64,000 bases of DNA, from positions 1,798,001 through 1,862,000 of the forward strand of contig OZ024753.1 in assembly GCA_964016885.1 (NCBI GenBank), written 5' to 3'. The notes beneath the pieces were generated by a model, which ran no database searches, was not told the origin of the DNA, and saw nothing but the letters and a program-made list of their open reading frames with translations. This DNA is from Eledone cirrhosa (taxonomy: Eukaryota). This document shows positions 8,445 through 62,786 of this stretch, one piece after another. Position numbers and translations under genes: made by a program. Position 1 is the first letter of the stretch. Each line of letters opens with the position of its first letter.

Positions 8445-9170
8445 CTATAAAATGAAAACAGACATGTTTATTATTAAGTCCACCCTGTTGTGGTAGTGTT
8501 GCTGCCAAAACAAAAAGCACCAAGTCCACTCTATAAGGTGGTAGCATCAGAGTCATGGTAAAATGCTCCCAGTACATGCTGTAAAGTGGTTGGCATTATG
8601 AAGGGATTCAAGCCATAGAAACCAAACTAAAAAGGGAGCATATGAGCAGGACTTAGTCATCTGATCTGTCTAGCCACAGTATATAACAACTCATCTAACT
8701 TATGCAAGCCTGGGGAATAGATATTAAACAGTGATATGTAATGAGGTAACACAGAGAGCAGAAATTGATGGCTACTTATAACCTCCATGTGTGTTGTTGA
8801 ATTCAATTTAATAATGGCAGAAATGAGGACTAACCCACCAAATAATTCCTCACTTCTTCTCAATACAAGAACAACAAGAAGCATTTTAAGGTCATCTTCC
8901 CTCCATATCATAAGAGGTGACTAAAAGAGTTGGTGCCAGGAAGCATATTTGGCCACATGTCAATAAGTATTTATATAGTCAACCAAAATACAGGATGGGG
9001 TCACACCCAATGATAGTAAGAGTGTCAGTGATACACACCTTTTTCAATCTGCTATGCTGAAAAAGACCCAGCTAACCCAAGTGAGCATGGAACAATGGAC
9101 ATAAAATGATGGTGATAATTTTTATTTTTATTTTTGGCAAATCTGACATAGTAAGTATAACATGATATAC

Positions 9171-9322
9171 CTTAACTTTAGGATACATATCCTTCAAATA
9201 ATGGAGATCATTTAGGGCAGAATAGTCCCTAAATACTTGCAAGATAAACTTCAAGTTGAGGTCTTTCCAGTCATGAGTTGGGTGCAAATTGTAGGTATTT
9301 ACACGAATCCAAGGTTCATCTT
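9171..9322 (-). CDS. GBA2: GBA2 exon 12
   Basis: [34 protein letters not shown]...MYPKVK. Confidence 0.97.
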
Positions 9323-9471
9323 CTACAAAGTAAGACAAACAGGAGTCATTAACACAAACTGAGAATAACAGAATAGGAGGAAAAGAAAGATAGGCAACAG
9401 TTTCAAGAATTTCAAAAATAAAGCAAAACAACAAATCTAAAGAAAATGAAGAAAATAATTCTTTCACAAAC

Positions 9472-9579
9472 CTGGATCTCCTAAATCATGGGGAATAGAT
9501 TTTGGTGATTTATTTGGACCTTTGCTGCCACACATTAGATACTCAACAATAGTGGCATCTTCTTGGTCAATAGCTTTGG
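9472..9579 (-). CDS. GBA2: GBA2 exon 11
   Basis: [18 protein letters not shown]...IPHDLGDP; conserved PHDxG motif. Confidence 0.96.
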
Positions 9580-9889
9580 CTGAAAGACATAGCAACAAAT
9601 ATGTAGATTATATATTTATATCAGACAGCAATAATGTTTGGTGTGTCAATGTGCCGGACTAATCTCTAACAATTATACTTCATTAATATATCATTCTGTA
9701 CACCAAAAAAATGTATACCTATATATACATATGCATACACATACAAATGCACACACACACACACACACACTGTTCTGCTCTTTTCAAAAATGACTTGCTA
9801 AATAATGTGGTTTCATGTGGTACAGGATGTTATGAATTAATGGTTCTCTAGAGAGAATTATTGTTTCAAGATTAAAAGGGATATCTTAC

Positions 9890-9994
9890 CTATATCATAT
9901 TGAAGACACAACTGTAGTTTGGGCCATAAGGTCAGAAGAGCAAATGAAGCATAAAAATGAACATCATACGTATTGTACATTCGATATTCATGAC
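9890..9994 (-). CDS. GBA2: GBA2 exon 10
   Basis: [35 protein letters not shown]; GH116 signature. Confidence 0.97.
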
Positions 9995-10388
9995 CTTTAA
10001 AGGAATATAAAGAAACCTTATGAATTACTGAAGTGCTGAGAATGTTTGAAATCTGAAAATATGAAAGACCAAAATGCAGAAAATAAACCATAGTGAAGGC
10101 AACCCATGTGGGAGAGCAGTCACTCTGAATAAAAAATGATACAGGGTTGAGAGGGCACTTAAGTCTTGCCAGACAACCTGTTTAGAGCTGTTGCTATGAT
10201 AAAATGCACCTAGCCCATACTGTAAAGTGGTTGGTGATAGGAGGGGCATCCAGCCAGAAAACTTAGTAACAAACCAGGAGTATTATCATCATTATTATAA
10301 GTTCAACCCATGCAAGCATGGAAAATAGATGTAAGAAATCAGAAATATGGTAATGAAAGGGTTAGAAAGACTGACTTTGTTTTGTTAC

Positions 10389-10549
10389 CTTCAAGATAAG
10401 CAAACTTGCCATATTCTTTTATCACAGCTGGTATTTCTTCTTGAGAAGCAGAGTCAGAGTTTGGAACATGATCCAACCATACAGTGCCACCATCACTTAC
10501 ATAATAGAGTTCATTGAATAAAGCTGACTTGTACCAAGCAGGAAGATCT
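10389..10549 (-). CDS. GBA2: GBA2 exon 9 (contains the catalytic nucleophile Glu in FAYLE-G)
   Basis: [24 protein letters not shown]...EYGKFAYLE; AG/GT flanked. Confidence 0.97.
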
Positions 10550-10834
10550 CTAAGACAACAGGAAGGAAAGTATTAACAGCAATTTTATTAACCATAAACT
10601 ATAGAATATTTTGTTAACCCTTTTCTTACCGCATTTCGAATGAAATACAGTGGAACCTAGGTTCATGTACTTAATTTGTTCCTAAAGGCTGTTCGTGACC
10701 TGAAATGTTCATAAACCAACACCCTTAGCACTAGGCCAAGCACCTCCACAATTGTTTCCATTGCTGGGACATTTTATCTAATTTTCTAACTTATTATTTA
10801 TAGGAATCATCAGCTAATTTTTGCATTTCGTATA

Positions 10835-10875
<41 letters not shown>

Positions 10876-10876
<1 letters not shown>

Positions 10877-11090
10877 AAGTGGACGTGTAGGCGCCACGGA
10901 AAAAAAGCCCCCAGCACTCACTGTAAATGAGGTTGGTGTTAGGAATGGCATCCAGCTGTAGAAATCAAGCCAAAATCAGTTCCTGTATGAGCAAGGCATG
11001 GTCAGCCGACCAGACACTGCCCACAACAGGACAACCCGTCTAACCCATGCTAGCATGGAAGAACAGACGTAAAACGGTGATGATGATGAT
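10876..11090 (+). mobile_element. SINE 3' body with (GAT)n tail
   Basis: Reverse complement of 6481-6690. Confidence 0.85.
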
Positions 11091-11349
11091 ATATGTGAGT
11101 GAAATTGGGTAGACAGAAACTGTGTGGAAGTCTGTCAGATGGACTGTATCTATTACTGAAAAGTCAAGCCTAGTTACATTATGTCATGTCAATTCCACTT
11201 GAGAGTTACATTTAGGGTCTATGTGTGTGGAATACTCAGCCATATATATGCTAATTCAATGAGTAGGTGGCTCAGTTAATTAAACAACTGGTCACTCGTA
11301 TGTTGTTCTTGATGAGACAGTTCATCATACATAAAATATATATACCTAC

Positions 11350-11475
11350 TTGTTCTGTAGGACAGTATTCTGCCATTCTTCAATCTTCTGTTCCCATGTT
11401 TTATAGTTATTTAGGGCATAACTACAGATCTGAGGTGCAGCTTGGGCTTTGTGGCCAAACCAGCGAGTGTAACGT
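11350..11475 (-). CDS. GBA2: GBA2 exon 8
   Basis: RYTRWFGHKAQAAPQICSYALNNYKTWEQKIEEWQNTVLQN; AG/GT flanked. Confidence 0.95.
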
Positions 11476-11709
11476 CTTCAAAGTAAAGGTAAAAAAACAA
11501 AAATTAATACTTTGTGTTGTCAAAGAAGATATGTAGCCAATCTCTTGGATTTTAATTGTTGAGAATATAAAGAATAATGTGCTCATGCACATAGATGCTA
11601 TAGAATAGCTTATAAAATAGGGCAGAGATCCTTAAAAGACAGAAAAAGAAGTTGCCAGCAGCCAAAGGCAACTTTGTTTTCCATCTTTTTAGGATCTCTG
11701 CCCTATTTT

Positions 11710-12082
11710 ATAAGTGATTATATAGCATCCCTGTGTATGAGTACATCACTATAAGCTATTCTAGAGCATCTCTATACATGACTACATCACTATAAGTTAT
11801 TCTATAGCTTATAGTGATGTACATGAGTACATCATTAAAGGCTATTTTATAGCATCTCTATACATGACTACATCATTATAAGTTATACTGTGACATCTCT
11901 GTGCATGAATACATCATTATAAGCTATACTATAGCATCTCTGTGCATGAATACATCATTATAAGCTATACTATAGCATCTCTGTGCATGAATACATCATT
12001 ATAAGCTATACTATAGCATCTCTGTGCATGAATACATCATTATAAGCTATACTATAGCATCTCTGTGCATGAATACATCATT
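11710..12082. repeat. 41-bp minisatellite grown from one arm of an inverted repeat
   Basis: Unit ATAAGCTATACTATAGCATCTCTGTGCATGAATACATCATT; last copies identical. Confidence 0.92.
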
Positions 12083-12178
12083 CTTTATATTAACTTTGTG
12101 TTGTATTTCTATATAAATATTTTTCCAAAATGGAAAGCATGTTTTTGATACTTCCATAGAAAGTAGTGTGTTATTTAC

Positions 12179-12350
12179 CTTCGATAATTCTGTTCCTTTG
12201 ATTTGAAATGAATATTTGGCATGTCCCAGCAAAGCGAGAATTCCATTTGCTTAGAAGTAGAACCCGCTGCAACTGTACACTTGCAGCATACAGCTACTGC
12301 ACATTCAGTGTTTTTTCTGGTTGGTTGACTTTTACTTTCAAGGTCAGCTT
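12179..12350 (-). CDS. GBA2: GBA2 exon 7
   Basis: EADLESKSQPT...AVAVC...MEFSLCWDMPNIHF...YRR; AG/GT flanked, frame consistent. Confidence 0.93.
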
Positions 12351-12759
12351 CTGCAAGATAATAAATAAAACTTCAATAGTCAAAGTCCTGCTGCAGAGAA
12401 AACAAATATAACACTGCCTATAATTTTGAAAATATTTAAGAATTTTGATAAATTTAGTAATATAACAAATTTTGACATTGTTCATATGCCACTCCCCCCC
12501 CCCCCAACTCTTCACTGCCTTTCTCTTCTATTACATCCTACATTTTTTCTCTCCTCTGTCACCCCTCAACCACCATTCTTATCTATTTTCTATCATTGCT
12601 CTTTCTTCTATTCCCACTGTCACTGATGCACACTAACACTGCACAACTCATGGAACAATATCATCAATCAGGCTAGGCTCATTAATTAAATGAATAGCAA
12701 TAAGATAAAGTGTAAACATCACTAAAAATGAAAAAAAGTAGTATATACTTTGTATTTAC

Positions 12760-12859
12760 CACTTTTGGTGAGGAAACCGTCTTCATGGAGATCTTTCCAA
12801 ATGTCTTCTCCAGAACCACAGGGATCAAAATATACACAATGGCTGGCTAAGAGATCAGG
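12760..12859 (-). CDS. GBA2: GBA2 exon 6
   Basis: PDLLASHCVYFDPCGSGEDIWKDLHEDGFLTKS; FDP..G..W.DL..DG motif; AG/GT flanked. Confidence 0.93.
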
Positions 12860-13647
12860 CTGAAAAGAGTAAAGATAATGAAGTGAAGAATGAGGGCAGA
12901 AAGTAAGAAAAAACAAGACAAAGAAATGCAGTAAAATATTGAAATAACCAAAAATGATGATTTCACAGATATGTGTGATAAAAGAACTCGGAGAAACTAT
13001 ATTTATATTTTTAACTGTTGGTCAATCAATGATAAACATTGATTACCAGCTAAATTATTTATAGAAATATAAAGATATACTGACGCAAAAATGAAACCAA
13101 ACAGTAAGTGTATTTTACTATATTTTTCTGGCAATATTAGAACATGACTCTCCCCAAATATAACATAAAAATATTTTTTTTCTTTTAACTCTTACACTAA
13201 ATGTATCCCAGTTTTTAGAATAGGTACATTGTATCTCTGTGTTGTAGGAGGTGACTAAAGCGGTTGGCACCAGGAAGGGAATGTGGCTGTAAAATATTAT
13301 TTCAAATCATCCTGTCCAAACACATGCCAGCATCGAAAAAATGGTCTGAATGTCCTGTACCACATGAAACTGCATTAATAAGACATTCTTGAAAAGTACA
13401 ATCTAACAGCATCAAGTATTCTACCCAGAACATATCATTCATGAAACAGTAATAATAAGGGAACACAACTGGCACACATACTCAGCAATCTGGGTTCAAT
13501 TTCTGGTCAACATTTAGAAACCCCACCCCACCCACCCACCCACAATAAAAAGGGAAACAAAAATGAGAATGAAAGAAAAAAAGAGGAGAAAATGGAAGAA
13601 AGAAGAAAAGAAAGACAATAAAAATTTAGAAAAGGAAAAGTGCTTAC

Positions 13648-13893
13648 CTTATGTTTGACAGCTACACCATAGACACATGGCATACTCTCAAAGGACTGGT
13701 GAATCTGAACACCAGATACAGGTTCTGCAGGTGAATCATTGGATATATGGAAATACTCATTCCAGCAGCCACCTGCTCTATCTTCCTTCACACCACGACC
13801 ATTTTTAAAGGTAAACATAATGCTAATGTCCAGATCTTCATCCCCAAGATTCTCAGCTGTCCATATAAACACTGCACAGGGAAGACTAGTATC
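13648..13893 (-). CDS. GBA2: GBA2 exon 5
   Basis: DTSLPCAVFIWTAEN...ISIMFTFKNG...WNEYF...AVKHK; AG/GT flanked. Confidence 0.95.
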
Positions 13894-14777
13894 CTACATG
13901 TGTAGAAGTCAAGTGAATTGTGTTACCATAATTAAAATGAAAGACATTGACTATGACTTTTGAATAATTAAAAAAAATAATCAAGAATTTAGTAGTATAA
14001 CTAACATTCTGATTATTAAGCAGCAAGAAAGACCAGGATAGAGGTGGTGAGAGCTGATCTCAAATTGCTGAGACTCACAGAGGAGACGATGAAGAAATGT
14101 GGTGAGTGGAGAGATGCTGTGCTGAAAAGGACCCATCCAACCTATGCAAGTGTGGAAAAACGGATGTAAAAATGATGATGATGATGATGATGAAGGTCTT
14201 CAGTTCTCTGCACTTAAAGGAAACAAAATAATATGATGTTGGCTGAAATGCTTTTGATCATAGACCAAGTTAATGAAGGCCGGTCTGAGTCTAAACAACA
14301 ACAATAACAATACAAAATCTTTAGATAGTGCATCATTGGCTCAATGGGTTACAGTAAACAGGCTAATATAAACGATATTATAAAGACCTTGCCAAATTGA
14401 AATAAGAGTTTTGTAATATGATTTACAATAAAAAGACTTGCAAGTTCAATCTGAACATTAGATGATACTATAAAATAGCCTTAGATACACTGCCTGTAAA
14501 AGCAAAAAATGAAGGAAAGGCCACAAGTCTATTGATTAAGGTTGCCCTTGGGTTAAAATACTTCATTTCATGTTGCTGCAGTATACTCAGCTGAAAATGA
14601 GTACCAGTAATACTTAGTGTTAACTCTGCGTTGGACTGGCGTCATATCCATAGTTGAGTCTTGTACTCTGAATTACTCCTTGCCACAAAACCGGGATAAA
14701 TACTGGCCTAATGAACCTTCTGGCTTGATACAGACTTTAGACTTTTGGGTTAAATAACAACAGTAACTACAACTTAC

Positions 14778-15002
14778 TTGATATTCATGGGGATAGATTG
14801 GTGAAACTTGGCGGCATGTCAGCCGAACATTATGTTCAGGAATATTATATACTGTCCAAGAGTGAGGATAAAGGGCATGGTATGTTGCATGGTCTGCATC
14901 CAGGTTCCATTTCCAGGAATTTAAACTTTTATTTTCAGGTTTCTTCACAGACATTACTTGTTGAAATACAGTCTTATTTTTCTTTTGAATGCAGACAACG
15001 AA
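14778..15002 (-). CDS. GBA2: GBA2 exon 4
   Basis: FVVCIQK...YHALYPHSWTVY...LTCRQVSPIYPHEYQ; AG/GT flanked, phase 0. Confidence 0.96.
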
Positions 15003-15142
15003 CTGTAACATAAGGAATAAAGAAATGGAAGTTGCAATGGTGTGTGTATGTGTGTGTGTACAGAGTCGTGAAGGTAGATCAGAAGATCCCATAATAGGGT
15101 GTAAGCAGAAATTATTTGCTTAAACTTTAATCAGTACTACTA

Positions 15143-32295: not shown

Positions 32296-33926
32296 TATAT
32301 AAATGTATATATGTATGTGTGTGTGTCTATTATATACATACAAATGTATGTATATATATATATATATTATATATATATATATATACATCTATATACATAC
32401 ACACACACAAATCCATATATATATGTGTGTGCTTGTATGTATATAGTTATATAGATATGTGTGTGTGTGCTTGTGTAGCATCAAAGGTTTTCATAGACTG
32501 CATGAATGAAAACAAGGGCTTTATGTTTTCTACATTGCTGAAATATTATTCATGTTACTCAACATAGTTGCTTGCTACCAAAGGTTTCAAAGCTTGCCCT
32601 TTTATTGGTTATAAAGTTATTTTATGGTCCTGATGGGGATTTCTTTCTCCTCAGCTATGAAATGACGTCAACAAACTTATTTCTTGCCTGCCTGAAGAGA
32701 AGTAAATTCTCAAGGAGACCATAAGATAACTTTATAGCCAATACAAGGGCAAGCTTTGAAACCATAGGGAGGAAGTGACTTTGTTAAGTAACATTAATTA
32801 TATTTACCTCTCTCTCTATTTATATATATATATGTTTATTACATTTGTATCTGAATGTGTGTGTTTGTGAATGTATCTGTTAGTGTGTGTGTGAGAGAGA
32901 GAAAGAGAGAGACAGAAAGAGAGAATAATATCAATGTGTTGCGATACACTGATTTAAGTTTTAATAGTACTCAGTGCAGACGTAAGAGTGTGTGGGAATC
33001 ATTCATGTTCTGAGAGTATAAAACTAGTATTGAAATATTCAATCTCGTTGAGCCACTTCCTCAAGCGTGGATTGTTAATGACCCTGAAATATAGATATTT
33101 ATCATTAGTAAAGCATGGTGCAGTTGATATTAGCAACAAACACAACTTAGCAACATATATTAATGGTAACATGCATAGTTTTTTTAATTGCGGGAAATGG
33201 AATAAAAATCATTTTTTTTTCGTTTCTTTGAAGCAGCAGCTGTAACACTAATAAGAAGCAATAACTAACATCTATGAAAGACTTACCTACCTTATAAAAA
33301 CATTGACAAAAGAAATTTTCATATTTTTTTTGTCAACATGTGGAGATAAATAGGACACGAATGAGTATTTATCACAAAACCTAATGTAGCCCACATGATA
33401 TGTCCACTTGCATTGCTTTAAAAAACACAAATGCATTATTCTACACATCAGCATCGAGTGGTATATATTTTTACATATTTAGATATCCATACGCATGATA
33501 TGCTGACCAAACTCAGCATCAACATTTCCATAAAGAATATCCTCATTCCACCATGGAAATAGTATATATATATATATATATCAGGATAAAATCAGTATTA
33601 AACTTGTTAGATCATTATTCAACAGATTACTCAATACTTGGGCTAGTAGTGTTTGACTATATTAGAAAGAGTTGGGGCCTGATGGCTGAGCTCTTGCAAT
33701 TTCAACAGCTAGTTTCAGTAACAAAACAAGGGGCGTTGTAGCAATGCTGGATTTATTGGGGTGTGTATGTATGTGTGTGTTTGCATGGCATTCACCATTT
33801 TTGTGGTCAGAAGACTTGGATGGTTTAATTGCAGACATGCAGCCAGCTGTTGATGCCACCCAAAATCTCTTAACACTCCCAACTTTTGTCTGTCAACAAA
33901 AGAACTTATATATATATATATATACA

Positions 33927-37161: not shown

Positions 37162-38765
37162 CAGTGCCCCACAAAAGTTTACAACACATTAGGAAAAATG
37201 CGGTTTTAGGTATTTTTAATAAAGTTAGGGTAATGAAAATTTAACTACTGATAGAATATATAATGAGGCATTTAATGATACAATTATATTTTTTTTTAAA
37301 TAACAAGGAAATAACTCATGAAGAAAAATCAATATTTTTATAACGCAAAAGTTTACAACACATTTATTAAATCATCTCTTAATATTTTGTAGCGTAACCT
37401 TTGTTGCTAATTACAGCCTGTAGGCATTTGAAGTAGCCTCCTACAAACTTCTTGGCTAATATTTTTCCATTCTTCACAACAAATTTTCTTTAGTTCAGGG
37501 ATATTTTTGGGTTTCCTTTTTTGAATTCTGAGTTTCAGTTTTCTCCACAAATTTTTGATCGAGTTAAGATCTGGAGACTGACATGGCCATTTTAGAACAT
37601 TTGTTCCATTCGTACTTAACCAAGATTGTGTTAGCTTTGCAGTATGCTTTGGATCGTTGTCTTGTTGAAAAAAACCAAACTGGCTTTAAGCTGAGAGAAT
37701 GTGCACTTTGATGTAAATTCCTTTGCAAAATACCTCTATAATAAGCGCCATCCATTCTTCCTTCTATTATTTCAATATTTCCTACACCTGTGGCACTAAA
37801 GCAACCCCAGACCATGACTGATCCACCTCCAAATTTTACAGTTGGAATAGTATTCTTCAGTGAATATTCAGCACCTTTCTTTCTCCAGACTTTTGCCACA
37901 GCATTTCGACCAAAAAGTTCAATTTTTGTTTCGTCCGACCAAAATACATCTTCCCAAAATGACGCAGGTTTGATGAGATGCTCATTTGCAAAGTTTAATC
38001 GACGAAGAACTTGTTTCCTCGTAAGATGTGGTGTTTTCCCTGGAGACCTCGAGAAGATATATCGATGTAGTGAACAACTAATTGTATCTGTGCTCACTTT
38101 TACTCCACTTTCTTCTAGGTCATCCTAAACATTTTAATGAGTACACCGGGGTTCGTTGCCAACCTTTCTCGTCGATAACCGAGCTGCACGTTCCGTTATC
38201 TTTCTAGGACAACCATAACTAATTAGAGGACAGATGGAATGATGAGATTTCAAGTGATGAATTATAGTCCCAACTGAACTTAATGGCACATTTAACTGAC
38301 AAGATATCTTTCTATAACCAACACCATTTGTATGAAGGTCTACAATGCGTTTACGGAGGTCTTGATCAATCAGTTTATTTTTCCCCATATTGTCAATGTT
38401 TACAGGACGGTTGTCAATGCTTACAGGATGGTTGTCAGACAAATAATGACGTAATGTTTTTAATTGTCCTTAGAAGTTACCTTAAACCTAATCTAGAACA
38501 TTCTACTGAATTTTAAATCTGAAAATTTAAGAATTTTCTTGAAAAAAAAGCGATAAATATAAAATGTATTGTAAACTTTTGCGTTATAAAAATATTGATT
38601 TTTCTTCATGAGTTATTTCCTTGTTATTTTTTTTAAAATATGATTGTATCATTAAATGGCTCACTATAGGTTCTATCAGTAGTGAAATTTTCATTACCCT
38701 AACTTTATTAAAAATACCTAAAACCGCATTTTTCCTAATGTGTTGTAAACTTTTGCGGGGCACTG
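37162..38765 (-). mobile_element. Full-length but dead Tc1-family DNA transposon with ~204-bp IR/DR terminal inverted repeats
   Basis: Ends CAGTGCCCC...GGGGCACTG; TA on the left, CA on the right (probable mutated TSD); TIRs 37162-37365 and 38562-38765 each carry two CAAAAGTTTACAA(C/T)ACATT direct repeats. Confidence 0.96.
37379..38388 (-). pseudogene. Tc1 (DD34E-type) transposase pseudogene
   Basis: MGKNKLIDQDLRKRIV (paired-like HTH), WSDETK, TVKFGGGSVMVWGCF, FQQDNDPKH, SPDLNSIKNLW (third catalytic E replaced by K); ORF broken by stops and frameshifts. Confidence 0.93.
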
Positions 38766-38766
38766 C

Positions 38767-44967
<6,201 letters not shown>

Positions 44968-45419
44968 TTGATATGGTTCAGCCAGTACTGGCCCAGGCCA
45001 TGCCTAATTTAGTAACATATACATGAATATATATATATAAACAAAGACATGCATATTATATGTATATACACACATACAAACATACATACACACATAGATA
45101 CATACATATACATTAGATATAAAATTGTTAACCTTGTTTTTTTTTTTTCATTTTGAATATATATATATATGTGAATTAGACTGGTCATTTGTTATCTTCT
45201 AATCTCCACTTAACATATATAGTGAAGCTATAAAGATCCATTTATATACAAACTATAAGTCAAGTACATAGGGAGTATTGCCATATCTGTTTACACTACT
45301 GCTTTCTCAGCAAGGCTTCTAATATAAAAACAACTGCAGCTATGTGTATAATAAATTTATCTCAAATCTTTATGTATGTATGTATGCATATGTGTGTGAT
45401 TCATTTCATTTCATTTCAT

Positions 45420-53476: not shown

Positions 53477-53989
53477 AATAATAATGATAATAATGGTTTC
53501 TGATTTAGGCACAAGGCCAGCAATTTTTGGGGGGAGGGGAAAGACGATTAAGTCAATCCCAATGCATTACCAATGCTTTATTTTATTGACCCCATAAGGA
53601 TGAAAGGCAAAGTTGATTTCGGAGGGATTTGAATTCTGAATGTAAAGAGTTGGAATAAATATTGATTATCCTTTGTCCGACTAACAATTCTGCCAACCCA
53701 CCGCCATAATAATAATAATAATAATAATAATTTAGGCAAGATGCCAGAAATTTGTCAGATGGGGCAAGTCAATTATACCAGCCCAAGTAAGGATGAAAGA
53801 CAAAGTTGACTTAGGCAGGATTTGAACTCAGAACATAAAGTGCCATAACTAAATACCTCAAAGCATTTTATGTCCAATGTTCTAACAATTCAGCCAAGCC
53901 ACTACCCTGCACTATTATTATTATTATTAAATGTTATCTTCCTCATTGCACAATGTTGATATTTACTACCAATATTTTTCTTCTTACCA

Positions 53990-54605
53990 TCAGGCTTCAT
54001 CTACCATACTCTGAACGCCTTGCTTCCCTGGGCATGGATTCATTGAAGCTCCGACGTCTGGCAATGGACTTGGTGAATACCCACAAAGTTTTTAACCATC
54101 TCGCCAACTGCAACCCTGAGCGCCTCTTTGATCTCCATGTGTCTAACACACGTGGACATGCCTACAAGATAAGAAAACAGCACAGCTCCCATGACTTTCG
54201 CAGACATTTTTTCACGCTCAGAGTTGCTGAAGCATGGAACAAACTGCCTGCGTCAATTGTTAGCTGCCGAGACACTGCATCCTTTAAGACACTCATGCTT
54301 CCCGAAATACGCCAAAACTACACCTGATGTACCCCTTCCATACACATGCACACATGTGTGTATCATGACTCGTGCACTGTTCATTTTACTGATGTTTGTG
54401 CATTGCCCTATGTACTGTACATGCACTTTTTTGATGAGTTGTGGTGCATCTGGGCACTGTACACAATATTTCATTATTGTTATTGTATCATGACTCATAC
54501 ACTTCATTTTCCTGACATTTGTACATTATTCTATGTACTATACATGCACCTTTGATGAGTTGTAGTGCACCCGAGCACTGTACACAATTTCATTATTATT
54601 ATTAT
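53990..54605 (+). mobile_element. 3' end of a CR1-group LINE with duplicated 3' UTR and (TTA)n tail
   Basis: PYSERLASLGMDSLKLRRLAMDL...TRGHAYKI...FFTLRVAEAWNKLP...FK; ~115-bp UTR segment repeated at about 54362-54483 and 54487-54605. Confidence 0.88.
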
Positions 54606-57340: not shown

Positions 57341-58202
57341 GAAAAGTGTCTATCCCAAGCCTGGTGGCTTATATTTGGCAGAGTTCAAGACTTCCCTCTG
57401 GACAGAATTCTAGTCTATCGCAAGGTTAAACCCCAGCTATTGCTGGTACTCATTTTCAGCTGAGTGGACTGGAATAATAATAATAATGATAATAATAATA
57501 ATAATGAAAATAATAAATTTTAAACATTGGCAATAGGCCACATATTTTGGGGTAGGAGAAGGTCAAGTCGATTTAACCCTTTAAACCCTGTTCACAAGAT
57601 TATCTTGTGACAAATGAAAGCGCAAAGTGAATGTTTTAGAGTTTATAAACTTGTCTGGTTCTCACTTCATCAAGCACATTATGATGAAAAGCAAGATTGA
57701 ATTGAGTAGGAATTACATTTAGAAAACAAAGGGACTTAACTTGATACTTCAAAGTATTTAAGTCAGCAGTGAAATGTTTCTGCCGGATACATTTCTGAAA
57801 TTATCCCACAGCAACCAATTTGTAAAGAGGGAGGAATAGTTGAATTCCTTAACCCCAATATATGACAAGATACATATTTTAATGATGTCAGGGGTTGGGA
57901 GTAACAAGGATAACGAGCTAAATCGACTTTGGCCATATTTGATGTGACTGAATGTGTTTAACAAAGTAAATTGGTGTCTGGAGCTCTGCAATTTCTGCTC
58001 CATTCTTCACCCTAGCACCTCATTTAATAATTCAATAACAACAATAACAACAACAATGTTATTAATAATGATTTCTAATTTAAGCACAAGACCAGCAATT
58101 TGTGAGGAAGTGAAAGTCGATAACAATTTCAGTACATTACTGGTTGTTTATTCTATTGGTCCTTAAAGGAAGGAAGACAAAGTTGACTTTGGCAGGATTT
58201 AA

Positions 58203-58310: not shown

Positions 58311-58800
58311 TTAAACTCAGAATTGGCTCAAAGTCTGTCAAGGTTAACTTTGCTTTTCATCCTCCTGGGGGTCGATAAAATAAAGTACTAGTAAAATACT
58401 GTGGTTGATATAATCAACTTAACCTTCCCCTAAATTGCTGGGTATGTACCTAAATTAGAAATCAACAATAAAAGTAATAACAACAACAAAAGCAGCAGCA
58501 ACAGCAGCAACAACAACAATAGTGTTCACTGCTGTGAATATACCAATGAGATTGCATGCATTAGAGCATTGGGGGGAGGTTGGATTAGATTTGTTTCAGT
58601 TTCTCAGAGGCAATGGTAATGGTGGTGGTGGTGATGATGATGGTGGTGGTGATGGTTTGTGGAGGGGGTAGTGGCGGTGGTAATAGTGATATTGGCAGTG
58701 GTGTCGGTGATGGTGGCAGCAGTGGTGAATGGTGGTGGTGGTGGTGGTGGTGATTGGTGATCATGGAATAATGCTATGATATATATATATATATCTATGT

Positions 58801-59013
58801 CTACTGAATAGAACATGGAGGTGAACCGAGTGCTGCATCGTGCTGGTGGAGGGCATGGCGGGAGGGCATATGGCTGACAACGTGGGTGGTGGTGGTGGCA
58901 CTACTGCTGCCGGATTGTCCTGAAGTGCCGGCATTTGCCGAGCTCCCAGCAGCGGCCCCGGCAGCTGTTCCGCTGCCACTACCACCCCCTCCAGCCGCCC
59001 TATCCAAGTCTAG
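58801..59013 (-). CDS. Putative stop-codon readthrough extension of Kv-beta (70 codons + TAG), ending in CaaX motif CSIQ
   Basis: In frame directly after TGA-CTAG: LDLDRAAGGGGSGSGTAAGAAAGSSANAGTSGQSGSSSATTTTHVVSHMPSRHALHQHDAALGSPPCSIQ*; GC-rich, with (TA)n starting just after the TAG. Confidence 0.65.
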   Translation of the reverse strand, partial: LDLDRAAGGGGSGSGTAAGAAAGSSANAGTSGQSGSSSATTTTHVVSHMPSRHALHQHDAALGSPPCSIQ

Positions 59014-59106
59014 TCACCTGGGTGGATGCTCCTTTCGTGACAGGGGTTTGTTGCCAAGCAACTTGTCCAATTCATTCATCAATGGTGGTGTCAACTTTGG
59101 CACATA
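59014..59106 (-). CDS. KCNAB: Kv-beta terminal coding exon (canonical stop TGA at 59016-59014)
   Basis: YVPKLTPPLMNELDKLLGNKPLSRKEHPPR*, matching the KCNAB C-terminus (PKL...EID.ILGNKP.SKKD). Confidence 0.95.
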   Translation of the reverse strand, partial: YVPKLTPPLMNELDKLLGNKPLSRKEHPPR

Positions 59107-60093
59107 CTGTAATACAAAAGCAGAGAATGGTGGTGAAATAATATTACTGGCAAAATTTAATTATAGGTATATGTTGTTATAAGTTTATATAATAAATTCA
59201 TACATATACAGTTTGAGTAGTGCAATATAACACACACACACACATACATACATACACACACACATATATATATATATTTGTTATATATAACATATATATA
59301 AATGTATTAGTAAAAAACTATTATTAACAATGACAAACAATATCTGAACTATTAACTTTAACCCTTTTAAAATCACATTATCTTTCATATGATTTTAAAA
59401 GGGTTAAAGTTAATAGTTCACATTATCTTTAATATGGTTCTGTAACCATCACATATTTCTCTCACAAAAATATATAATATCTCTGTCAATCATTGCCGTA
59501 TTTAAACTGTTTCTTTGGAGCTTAACTTTTGCACTTTGTACCATGATGTTATGAATGATTTTTATATATTAAGTGTTCTTAATGTTATTCTGTGTGGAAT
59601 ATTATTCGGAAGCATTTTAATAAACTCTGAAGACACCTATGCTGAATTACTAATCATGAGTTACTAATCATGAGTTACTAAATATAACTCTCTGTGTGTC
59701 ATTCAATACAGGTAAAAACAGATTAGTTTACAAATGCTTTAACTCTTTGGTGTTATTTAAACTATTAATGTATATATATATAGAGAGAGAGAGATAGATG
59801 CAAATTTACAGTACAAAACAAAATGAAATTAGATATTTCAAATTTGTAGTTTTATACAGAAATAGGTAGGCTAGTTGAAATAATCACGGTTAAGTAATTT
59901 GTGTTTAGACTGATCAGTTTCAGCTATGGGTAACTTTTCAAAATATAATTTTCAAGGCTACATTTGAGGTGGTGTTGTTTAGTTTTTAACACAGATCATT
60001 ATAGTTCTCTGGCCCCTTTAGCATCACACCGCAATGACCTATTCAACCCATGCTAGCATAGAAAATAGATGTAAAATGATGATGTATAAATAC

Positions 60094-60182
60094 CTGTAGA
60101 GCCTGGAGGTTTTCATAAAGTTGATCCACTGATGTAGCTCCGAGTAAGACACAATGAATGGCTTCCTGTCTAATACACCAAG
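60094..60182 (-). CDS. KCNAB: Kv-beta exon
   Basis: AWCIRQEAIHCVLLGATSVDQLYENLQALQ. Confidence 0.96.
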
Positions 60183-60889: not shown

Positions 60890-61010
60890 CTATTGCCAGT
60901 TGAGCCAATGAACAACCTAATTTATCAGCAACAACTGCCACTTCTCTAAGTCGTGCTTGCTGTTTGCGGCCCTCTTCACTGAGAATTTTATCTTTCAGCC
61001 ATCCGTAATT
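60890..61010 (-). CDS. KCNAB: Kv-beta exon
   Basis: NYGWLKDKILSEEGRKQQARLREVAVVADKLGCSLAQLAI. Confidence 0.96.
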
Positions 61011-61636: not shown

Positions 61637-61731
61637 CTTTAGGGCAGCACGAGAATAGATCGGAACTCCATCATCATACTTCCCTGAAAGAATTCCTGAT
61701 GCTAATGGGGACCAGCAAACTGTACCAACAC
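61637..61731 (-). CDS. KCNAB: Kv-beta exon
   Basis: [32 protein letters not shown]; AKR WSPL motif. Confidence 0.96.
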
Positions 61732-62665: not shown

Positions 62666-62786
62666 CAATTTTTGTGTAGATCTCATGCATGTGAAGCTCA
62701 ACCTTGTCTCGATGAAACATGTTATATTCAGCTTGTTCAGCAGTTGGTGGGATCAGGTTAAATTGGCGGGCTACAGCATAACTTTC
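62666..62786 (-). CDS. KCNAB: Voltage-gated K+ channel beta subunit (KCNAB/Hyperkinetic-like), internal exon; upstream exons lie beyond the window
   Basis: [40 protein letters not shown](G), similar to KCNAB2 [32 protein letters not shown]/GT flanked. Confidence 0.95.

Follow-up and report, generated by a model that had tools for sequence, protein, structure and literature searches.

The Kv-beta (KCNAB) gene of Eledone cirrhosa closes at a TGA within the motif TGA-CTAG, and the same reading frame continues behind it into a conserved extension that ends in a putative farnesylation signal. Comparative sequence evidence makes it very probable that this stop is read through, or bypassed in an equivalent manner. 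The TGA also forms part of an alternative splice donor, so the 3' end of the gene would specify three different C-termini. The analysis concerns a 64,000-nucleotide stretch, hereafter the window (positions 1,798,001 to 1,862,000 of the forward strand of contig OZ024753.1), and the features discussed are listed in Table 1.

Five exons in the window match a KCNAB2-like protein of O. bimaculoides (P0001) at 95-100% identity in tblastn comparisons. Eight further Kv-beta exon matches (81-100% identity, in L005-L008) lie upstream of the window, and the catalytic N-terminal half of the protein is intact in them. Kv-beta is a single locus: all nine matches of the genome search, a count to be read as a lower bound, fall here. 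P0001, a near-identical orthologue, scores 539 bits against the Kv_beta model TIGR01293 (cut-off 365) and matches chains of the solved Kv-beta2 structure with an E value of 1e-157. Because the exons match P0001 both within and upstream of the window, the locus is single and P0001 passes the Kv_beta model, we assign the gene to Kv-beta. A search of the ESM Atlas returned aldo-keto reductase clusters only. The long Kv-beta intron contains a ~6.3-kb TA/CA microsatellite array (~38700-45000) with stop-free frames of more than 2000 codons and, at 37567-38469 on the minus strand, broken transposase frames that we take from their motifs to be Tc1/mariner-like. A frame at 53839-54324 on the plus strand presumably represents the 3'-terminal part of a LINE reverse transcriptase, and exon-like frames downstream of Kv-beta (~9075-15119, minus strand) presumably belong to a second gene, resembling the non-lysosomal glucosylceramidase GBA2.

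Table 1. Features of the Kv-beta locus in the window (all on the minus strand; position 1 is the first letter of the window).
Feature	Position	Strand	Evidence or detail
Kv-beta coding exon, first within the window	62666..62786	-	tblastn, 100% to P0001 residues 166-206; AG/GT ends
Kv-beta coding exon	61637..61731	-	tblastn match to P0001; exon-end check
Kv-beta coding exon	60890..61010	-	tblastn match to P0001; exon-end check
Kv-beta coding exon	60094..60182	-	tblastn match; 3' end joined to 59106 in X19 and X11 contigs
Last shared Kv-beta coding exon, 30 codons, ends HPPR	59017..59106	-	
Alternative 5' splice donor CAG/GTGACT, overlapping last Arg codon and first stop	59012..59020	-	
First stop with leaky context TGA-CTAG	59010..59016	-	TGACTAGAC, 9-mer identical to human MDH1
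68-nt block, no listed difference from organism D	58967..59034	-	~16 synonymous sites; P ~0.005, post hoc
Predicted readthrough extension, 70 codons	58804..59013	-	Gly/Ser/Ala/Thr-rich linker (63%), then His-rich segment
Predicted long stem-loop, candidate 3' readthrough stimulator	58871..58999	-	folding versus shuffles
C-terminal CaaX box CSIQ	58804..58815	-	C-x-[IL]-Q also in L002-L004, P0030, P0031
Second stop TAG	58801..58803	-	
First AATAAA beyond the TAG, a weak candidate for a proximal poly(A) signal	58146..58151	-	
Distal alternative last exon	32999..33083	-	adds 27 residues (VINNP...SEHE), ends TGA-T, without CaaX box

The minus strand reads ...CCA CCC AGG TGA CTA GAC..., placing the TGA (59016-59014) directly behind HPPR, and the frame then stays open from 59013 to 58804 before the TAG. 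The first-pass annotation, which had proposed programmed readthrough from these features, was also correct that the extension is richer in GC than its surroundings (0.63 versus 0.31 for the window) and that a (TA)n tract follows shortly 3' of the second stop (58798-58779). The extension is more than low-complexity sequence: a conserved CaaX box stands at its end. The open frame alone is weak evidence, because 12.6% of composition-matched shuffles remain open over 70 codons and 170 of the 6869 stops in the window have at least 70 open codons behind them. What exceeds chance is conservation and not the length of the frame. An O. bimaculoides gene model (P0024, A0A0L8G026) shares 62 of 65 extension residues, counted by eye; its N-terminus differs from that of other Kv-beta proteins, and the model bypasses the stop. 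A degenerate repeat rich in (CAC)n/(CAT)n occupies 58614-58761, just past the second stop.

We compared 4 of 24 sequencing runs, none of them recorded as RNA. Two were informative; X18 yielded no contig, and X23 nothing but pieces of TA repeat. The contig from X19 (Eledone cirrhosa) is spliced upstream at 59106, continues through the TGA and the extension identical to the window and ungapped, and ends inside the (CAC)n/(CAT)n-rich repeat. The contig from X11 (organism D, another octopod) is spliced at the same position and likewise crosses the TGA and the extension, with 25 differing letters, of which 21 were located; it has a 12-nt gap just past the second stop, and its alignment ceases at 58767, ~35 nt after that stop. 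An mRNA that skips the donor and keeps an intact TGA exists; such contigs are evidence of presence and not of level, and rare variants are dropped from them. Within the extension, X11 and the window differ at 16 sites, 12 of them third positions (P 8e-4), with no indel. Changed codons in the extension frame are 11 synonymous to 4 non-synonymous, compared with 1 to 13 and 0 to 15 in the other two sense frames, and dN/dS is ~0.10 (Fisher 3e-5). Synonymous divergence is similar in extension and exon (pS 0.22 versus 0.24), while pN in the extension is 0.026. The frame preservation and synonymous bias that the first-pass annotation had proposed to look for are thus borne out in this octopod pair by pairwise counts, which are not PhyloCSF scores, and the organism D extension contains neither a frameshift nor an in-frame stop. 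The extension evolves like protein-coding sequence under purifying selection.

The earlier proposal requires a correction for splicing. The first-pass annotation overlooked that the TGA doubles as a splice donor, although readthrough is still supported. Use of the donor is seen as spliced isoforms in protein records P0001, P0002 and P0004-P0010. The peptide of the distal exon is identical to O. bimaculoides at 28/28 residues and to the Logan protein P0002 at 27/28, and the exon is preceded by an intron of 25,934 nt with a branch-point-like TACTAAT and an AG acceptor. The HPPR-VINNP... tail occurs in 8/8 members of one octopod cluster and in 7/13 of a second cluster, one with a cuttlefish record among its members; proteins ending at HPPR make up the other 6/13 of the latter and 3/4 of a third cluster. 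The junction to the distal exon is absent from the contigs compared, and the isoform rests on the protein records. Because the TGA sits inside the donor, the only mRNA that could be read through is the unspliced form with a composite terminal exon, and conservation of GTGA in cephalopods is partly due to splicing. Transcript-derived records of one cluster (P0002, P0012-P0022) vary from K to E or G and from R to G at 3 places, the distal-exon tail included, in a pattern that looks like A-to-I recoding.

Beyond the octopods, a HMMER search of representative sequences with the read-through peptide gave five matches, two of which are Kv-beta last exons (P0027 and P0030) in which R-W-L-D is followed by a Gly/Ser/Thr linker and then by C-x-[IL]-Q-W; a profile search added P0031. 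P0026, also matched, was set aside as a repetitive unrelated protein, and P0028 and P0029 are presumed to be low-complexity matches. A word-indexed protein search at near length yielded 168 candidates and 0 matches. A pattern scan then located three loci (L002-L004), all of which read TGA-CTAGAC with TGACTAGAC identical to the window and remain open for 77-78 codons, ending TPGC-[NA]-LQ-stop. Both W residues in P0027 represent TGA, as L004, the contig of P0027, shows; in P0030 and P0031, seen as protein, W presumably represents TGA. The queries for these loci contained W-L-D or TGA-YTN-GA, so that lineages without the feature could not appear, and the pattern left freedom at +4 C and +6 A alone. 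The context TGACTAG, whose conservation the first-pass annotation had suggested checking, is accordingly present in the window, the X11 contig and L002-L004, with +4 and +6 alone unfixed by the search.

The exons of L002-L004 share 45-54% identity with that of the octopus, and the three loci are probably from non-cephalopod molluscs or other lophotrochozoans. L002 and L004, the closest pair and close relatives of each other, give a dN/dS of 0.15 (Fisher 6e-6). Against L003 their synonymous sites are saturated (pS 0.86-0.89, pN 0.28-0.34), and despite this saturation TGACTAGAC and the terminal TPGC-x-LQ persist. L003 reads AGA-TGA and has no GT donor while keeping TGA-CTAG, which argues that the context is selected apart from splicing. 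The first stop of L002 and L004 also reads GAG/GTGACT, a possible donor over the stop, which L003 is without. Within the flanks examined of L002-L004 there were no upstream Kv-beta exons, and among the sequences found none showed the extension in a decapodiform.

A C-x-[IL]-Q motif ends all six extensions seen in sequence (window, L002, L003, L004, P0030 and P0031), as CNLQ, CALQ, CTLQ or CVIQ outside the window; of the 5072 stop-terminated frames in the window, 3 close on it. CSIQ is predicted to be prenylated by 4/4 predictors. In Berger 2022 (PMC9231725), CSIQ, CNLQ, CTLQ and CVIQ belong to the positive set derived from yeast Ras61/Ydj1 screens, and CALQ is predicted positive by 4/4 methods. 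From these matches we infer that the cysteine of CSIQ would be farnesylated, positives in a yeast screen not being proof for octopus.

The extension is also predicted to fold. The region from +8 to +150 is more stable than shuffles (z -3.2 in the window, -3.8 with the letters of organism D), with core pairs at p 0.8-1.0, one compensatory change from a G-C to an A-U pair and one 3-nt register shift. The stem-loop, whose 5' arm falls within the invariant 68-nt block, begins ~15-25 nt downstream of the stop. A role in promoting readthrough or in controlling the donor is possible, on slight evidence from two sequences. Shorter folds around the stop (-25..+75 and -20..+30) were no better than shuffles in 5/5 sequences, and L002-L004 have no evident stem in common with the octopods. 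In the predicted stem of both octopods the A at 58980 (minus strand), in a U-A-G context, faces the C at 58894. An A facing C in this context is the geometry that ADAR prefers; editing there would change a Ser of the extension to Gly, and the two contigs carry no G at this site.

Several other explanations were weighed. Readthrough may be real with the terminal cysteine unfarnesylated or the lipid without a role, C-x-I-Q being kept because it signals protein binding or degradation, or readthrough serving to tune Kv-beta dosage. The last 30 residues hold no second membrane signal (1 Arg, several His and no second Cys), and we found no text on prenylated Kv-beta in the open-access literature. 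Stable anchoring at the plasma membrane usually involves a polybasic patch or a palmitoylated Cys as well, and the anchor here would therefore be weak or depend on channel binding; binding to the channel together with the avidity of the tetramer could substitute for the second signal. Against this explanation, a Cys at -4, an aliphatic a2, Gln at X and a free a1 (S, N, A, T, V, L) fit the preference of farnesyltransferase, and the last four residues are conserved though the linker varies from 37 to 78 residues. We regard it as unlikely, if the most serious of the alternatives. A-to-I editing could instead convert UGA to UGI, which is read as Trp, and so remove the stop, much as happens in hepatitis delta antigen. 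Coleoids edit their RNA heavily; edit-like variants occur elsewhere in the Kv-beta contigs, and a long stem adjoins the stop. Nevertheless, both informative spliced contigs have A at the stop, in assemblies that drop rare variants, and the conserved CUAG at +4..+7 is a readthrough motif. The 5' neighbour of the A is G, described in PMC10459925 as least favoured for ADAR, and the stop-loss edits handled in a coleoid study were UAG to UGG. Editing is quite improbable as the source of the extension, though contigs of this kind would not reveal it at a low level.

The O. bimaculoides model A0A0L8G026 suggests a further route, in which an 18-nt GT-AG micro-intron (59017-59000) removes the stop: P0024 joins HPPR straight to AAGGGG and runs on to CSIQ, and the 18-mer in the window does start with GT and finish with AG. 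The corresponding deletion is absent from both spliced contigs, L003 is without GT at the site, and the Leu-Asp codons that would be lost are conserved in all loci. An intron of 18 nt is, moreover, far below known metazoan sizes. Judged against the DNA of the window, this very improbable intron is probably the predictor's way round an in-frame stop; models of this kind may point to further unrecognized cases of readthrough in annotated cephalopod genomes. Alternatively, the region might be conserved non-coding sequence serving donor regulation, an RNA stem or an antisense frame. The stop does lie within a real donor, a stable stem crosses the region, the third positions are shared with an antisense frame (58808-59182) that stays open over 124 codons, and GC-rich DNA stays open by chance as often as the shuffles indicate. 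Synonymous sites, however, diverge at the rate of the exon and non-synonymous sites do not, and the peptide motifs persist where synonymous sites are saturated. In the antisense frame no Met precedes codon 122 and 8 changes are non-synonymous; in L002-L004 each of the three antisense frames is interrupted by stops. We consider a non-coding role improbable to nearly the same degree as the micro-intron, and only marginally less so. Selenocysteine would account for the conserved codon being UGA; yet none of 21 Rfam matches (E<=5, L001-L004, ~1.5 kb of 3' flank), all of them sub-threshold and repeat-driven, is to a SECIS family, none of the homologues seen bears Cys at the stop position, and the second stop in L002-L004 is also TGA, leaving this reading with almost no probability. 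Readthrough is favored because the frame is kept with synonymous bias, L003 retains TGA-CTAG, contigs with an intact TGA exist and dipteran orthologues are listed as readthrough candidates.

We therefore propose a model, which as a whole we think likely, in which UGA-CUAG readthrough yields a farnesylated Kv-beta on a flexible tether beside two other C-termini. Splicing of the donor at the Arg-stop junction to the distal exon would give the 27-residue tail. Where the donor is unused, the mRNA would keep TGA-CTAG, and the majority of ribosomes would terminate at HPPR. A few would place a near-cognate amino acid at the UGA, aided by CUAG and possibly by the stem-loop, and would translate 70 more codons into a 71-residue tail, a disordered Gly/Ser/Ala/Thr tether with CSIQ at its end. 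The cysteine would then be modified by farnesyltransferase, leaving a few Kv-beta subunits lipid-anchored. Kv-beta sits beneath the T1 domain and at a distance from the membrane, so a tether of 40-80 residues with a farnesyl-cysteine is sensible, and it could span the distance from the cytoplasmic T1/beta position to the membrane. Anchoring could affect how the subunit is targeted to membranes, how the channel is trafficked, or how readily carbonyl substrates derived from the membrane are reached. Readthrough of UGA-CUAG in human reporters and genes is given as 1.3-17% (PMC5868278) and that of the MDH1 context, the same 9-mer TGACTAGAC, as 2.9% (PMC4359377). Rates of 1.3-17% would by our calculation leave 5-53% of tetramers with at least one extended subunit.

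The closest known counterpart is Hyperkinetic. Fly Hk and Anopheles AGAP010067 appear among stop-orthologous "ancient" TGA-C readthrough candidates (Jungreis 2016, PMC5100048); Hk is ranked tier 1 in a Ribo-seq and comparative 2026 preprint (PMC13278127); and a supplementary table lists the last four residues of its extension, CLIQ, as MOD_CAAXbox (Pancsa 2016, PMC4999894). The genes are orthologous and share an Arg-TGA-C first stop, an extension of tens of codons and a terminal CaaX box. They differ in context (TGA-CAATCA in the fly, TGA-CTAG in the octopus), in length (48 versus 70 residues) and in the overlap of the octopus stop with an alternative donor. Vertebrate AQP4, OPRK1, OPRL1, MAPK10, VDR, LDHB and MDH1 have the same UGA-CUAG context, and the cryptic PTS1 of LDHB and MDH1 is likewise a terminal targeting signal exposed solely via readthrough, whereas the octopus signal is a prenylation box on a long extension in an invertebrate lineage. 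In Drosophila, the readthrough extension of Syx17 closes on a signal predicted for farnesyltransferase (Dunn 2013, PMC3840789), a single prediction in another gene, for which the part seen gives no conservation beyond flies. Hepatitis delta large antigen, too, gains its farnesylated CXXX cysteine on a C-terminal extension that is added when a stop is bypassed, but that case (PMC10459925) is viral and its UAG is removed by ADAR1 editing and not by a leaky UGA-CUAG.

The first-pass annotation knew of no report in cephalopods. That holds for molluscs as far as the open-access literature seen goes, where we found no paper on mollusc or cephalopod readthrough, KCNAB readthrough or Kv-beta prenylation (supplements could hold such a claim); it does not hold for Kv-beta, whose readthrough is catalogued in Diptera. 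Readthrough is thus new for the lineage and not for the gene family. The supplement of PMC8382921 has no Kv-beta rows, the passages seen of PMC13170385 do not mention Hyperkinetic, and the consulted main texts on Hk readthrough, PMC4999894 included, gave 0 matches to CAAX or prenyl. We could not find a description of a conserved readthrough-dependent CaaX box on a channel subunit, in octopus and fly, with an overlapping donor. We lean narrowly towards the view that Kv-beta readthrough exposing a farnesylation signal is ancestral to protostomes, a translational switch retained from insects to cephalopods that lipid-anchors a small, regulated share of Shaker beta subunits and with which the donor competes in coleoids. 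Common ancestry with the fly case is what we infer; convergence is possible, because the CaaX box alone is clearly shared and the fly extension was compared in parts only.

Abundant readthrough is considered pancrustacean, a restriction that one mollusc gene does not contradict. If the model is correct, the Kv-beta locus would be a conserved mollusc case of readthrough with an insect counterpart, and readthrough would gain a deeply conserved use in exposing cryptic prenylation signals, beside cryptic peroxisomal ones. Kv-beta/Hyperkinetic is a redox-sensing channel subunit, important for excitability and for sleep control in flies. Current annotations would, on this model, overlook a membrane-tethered isoform of it.
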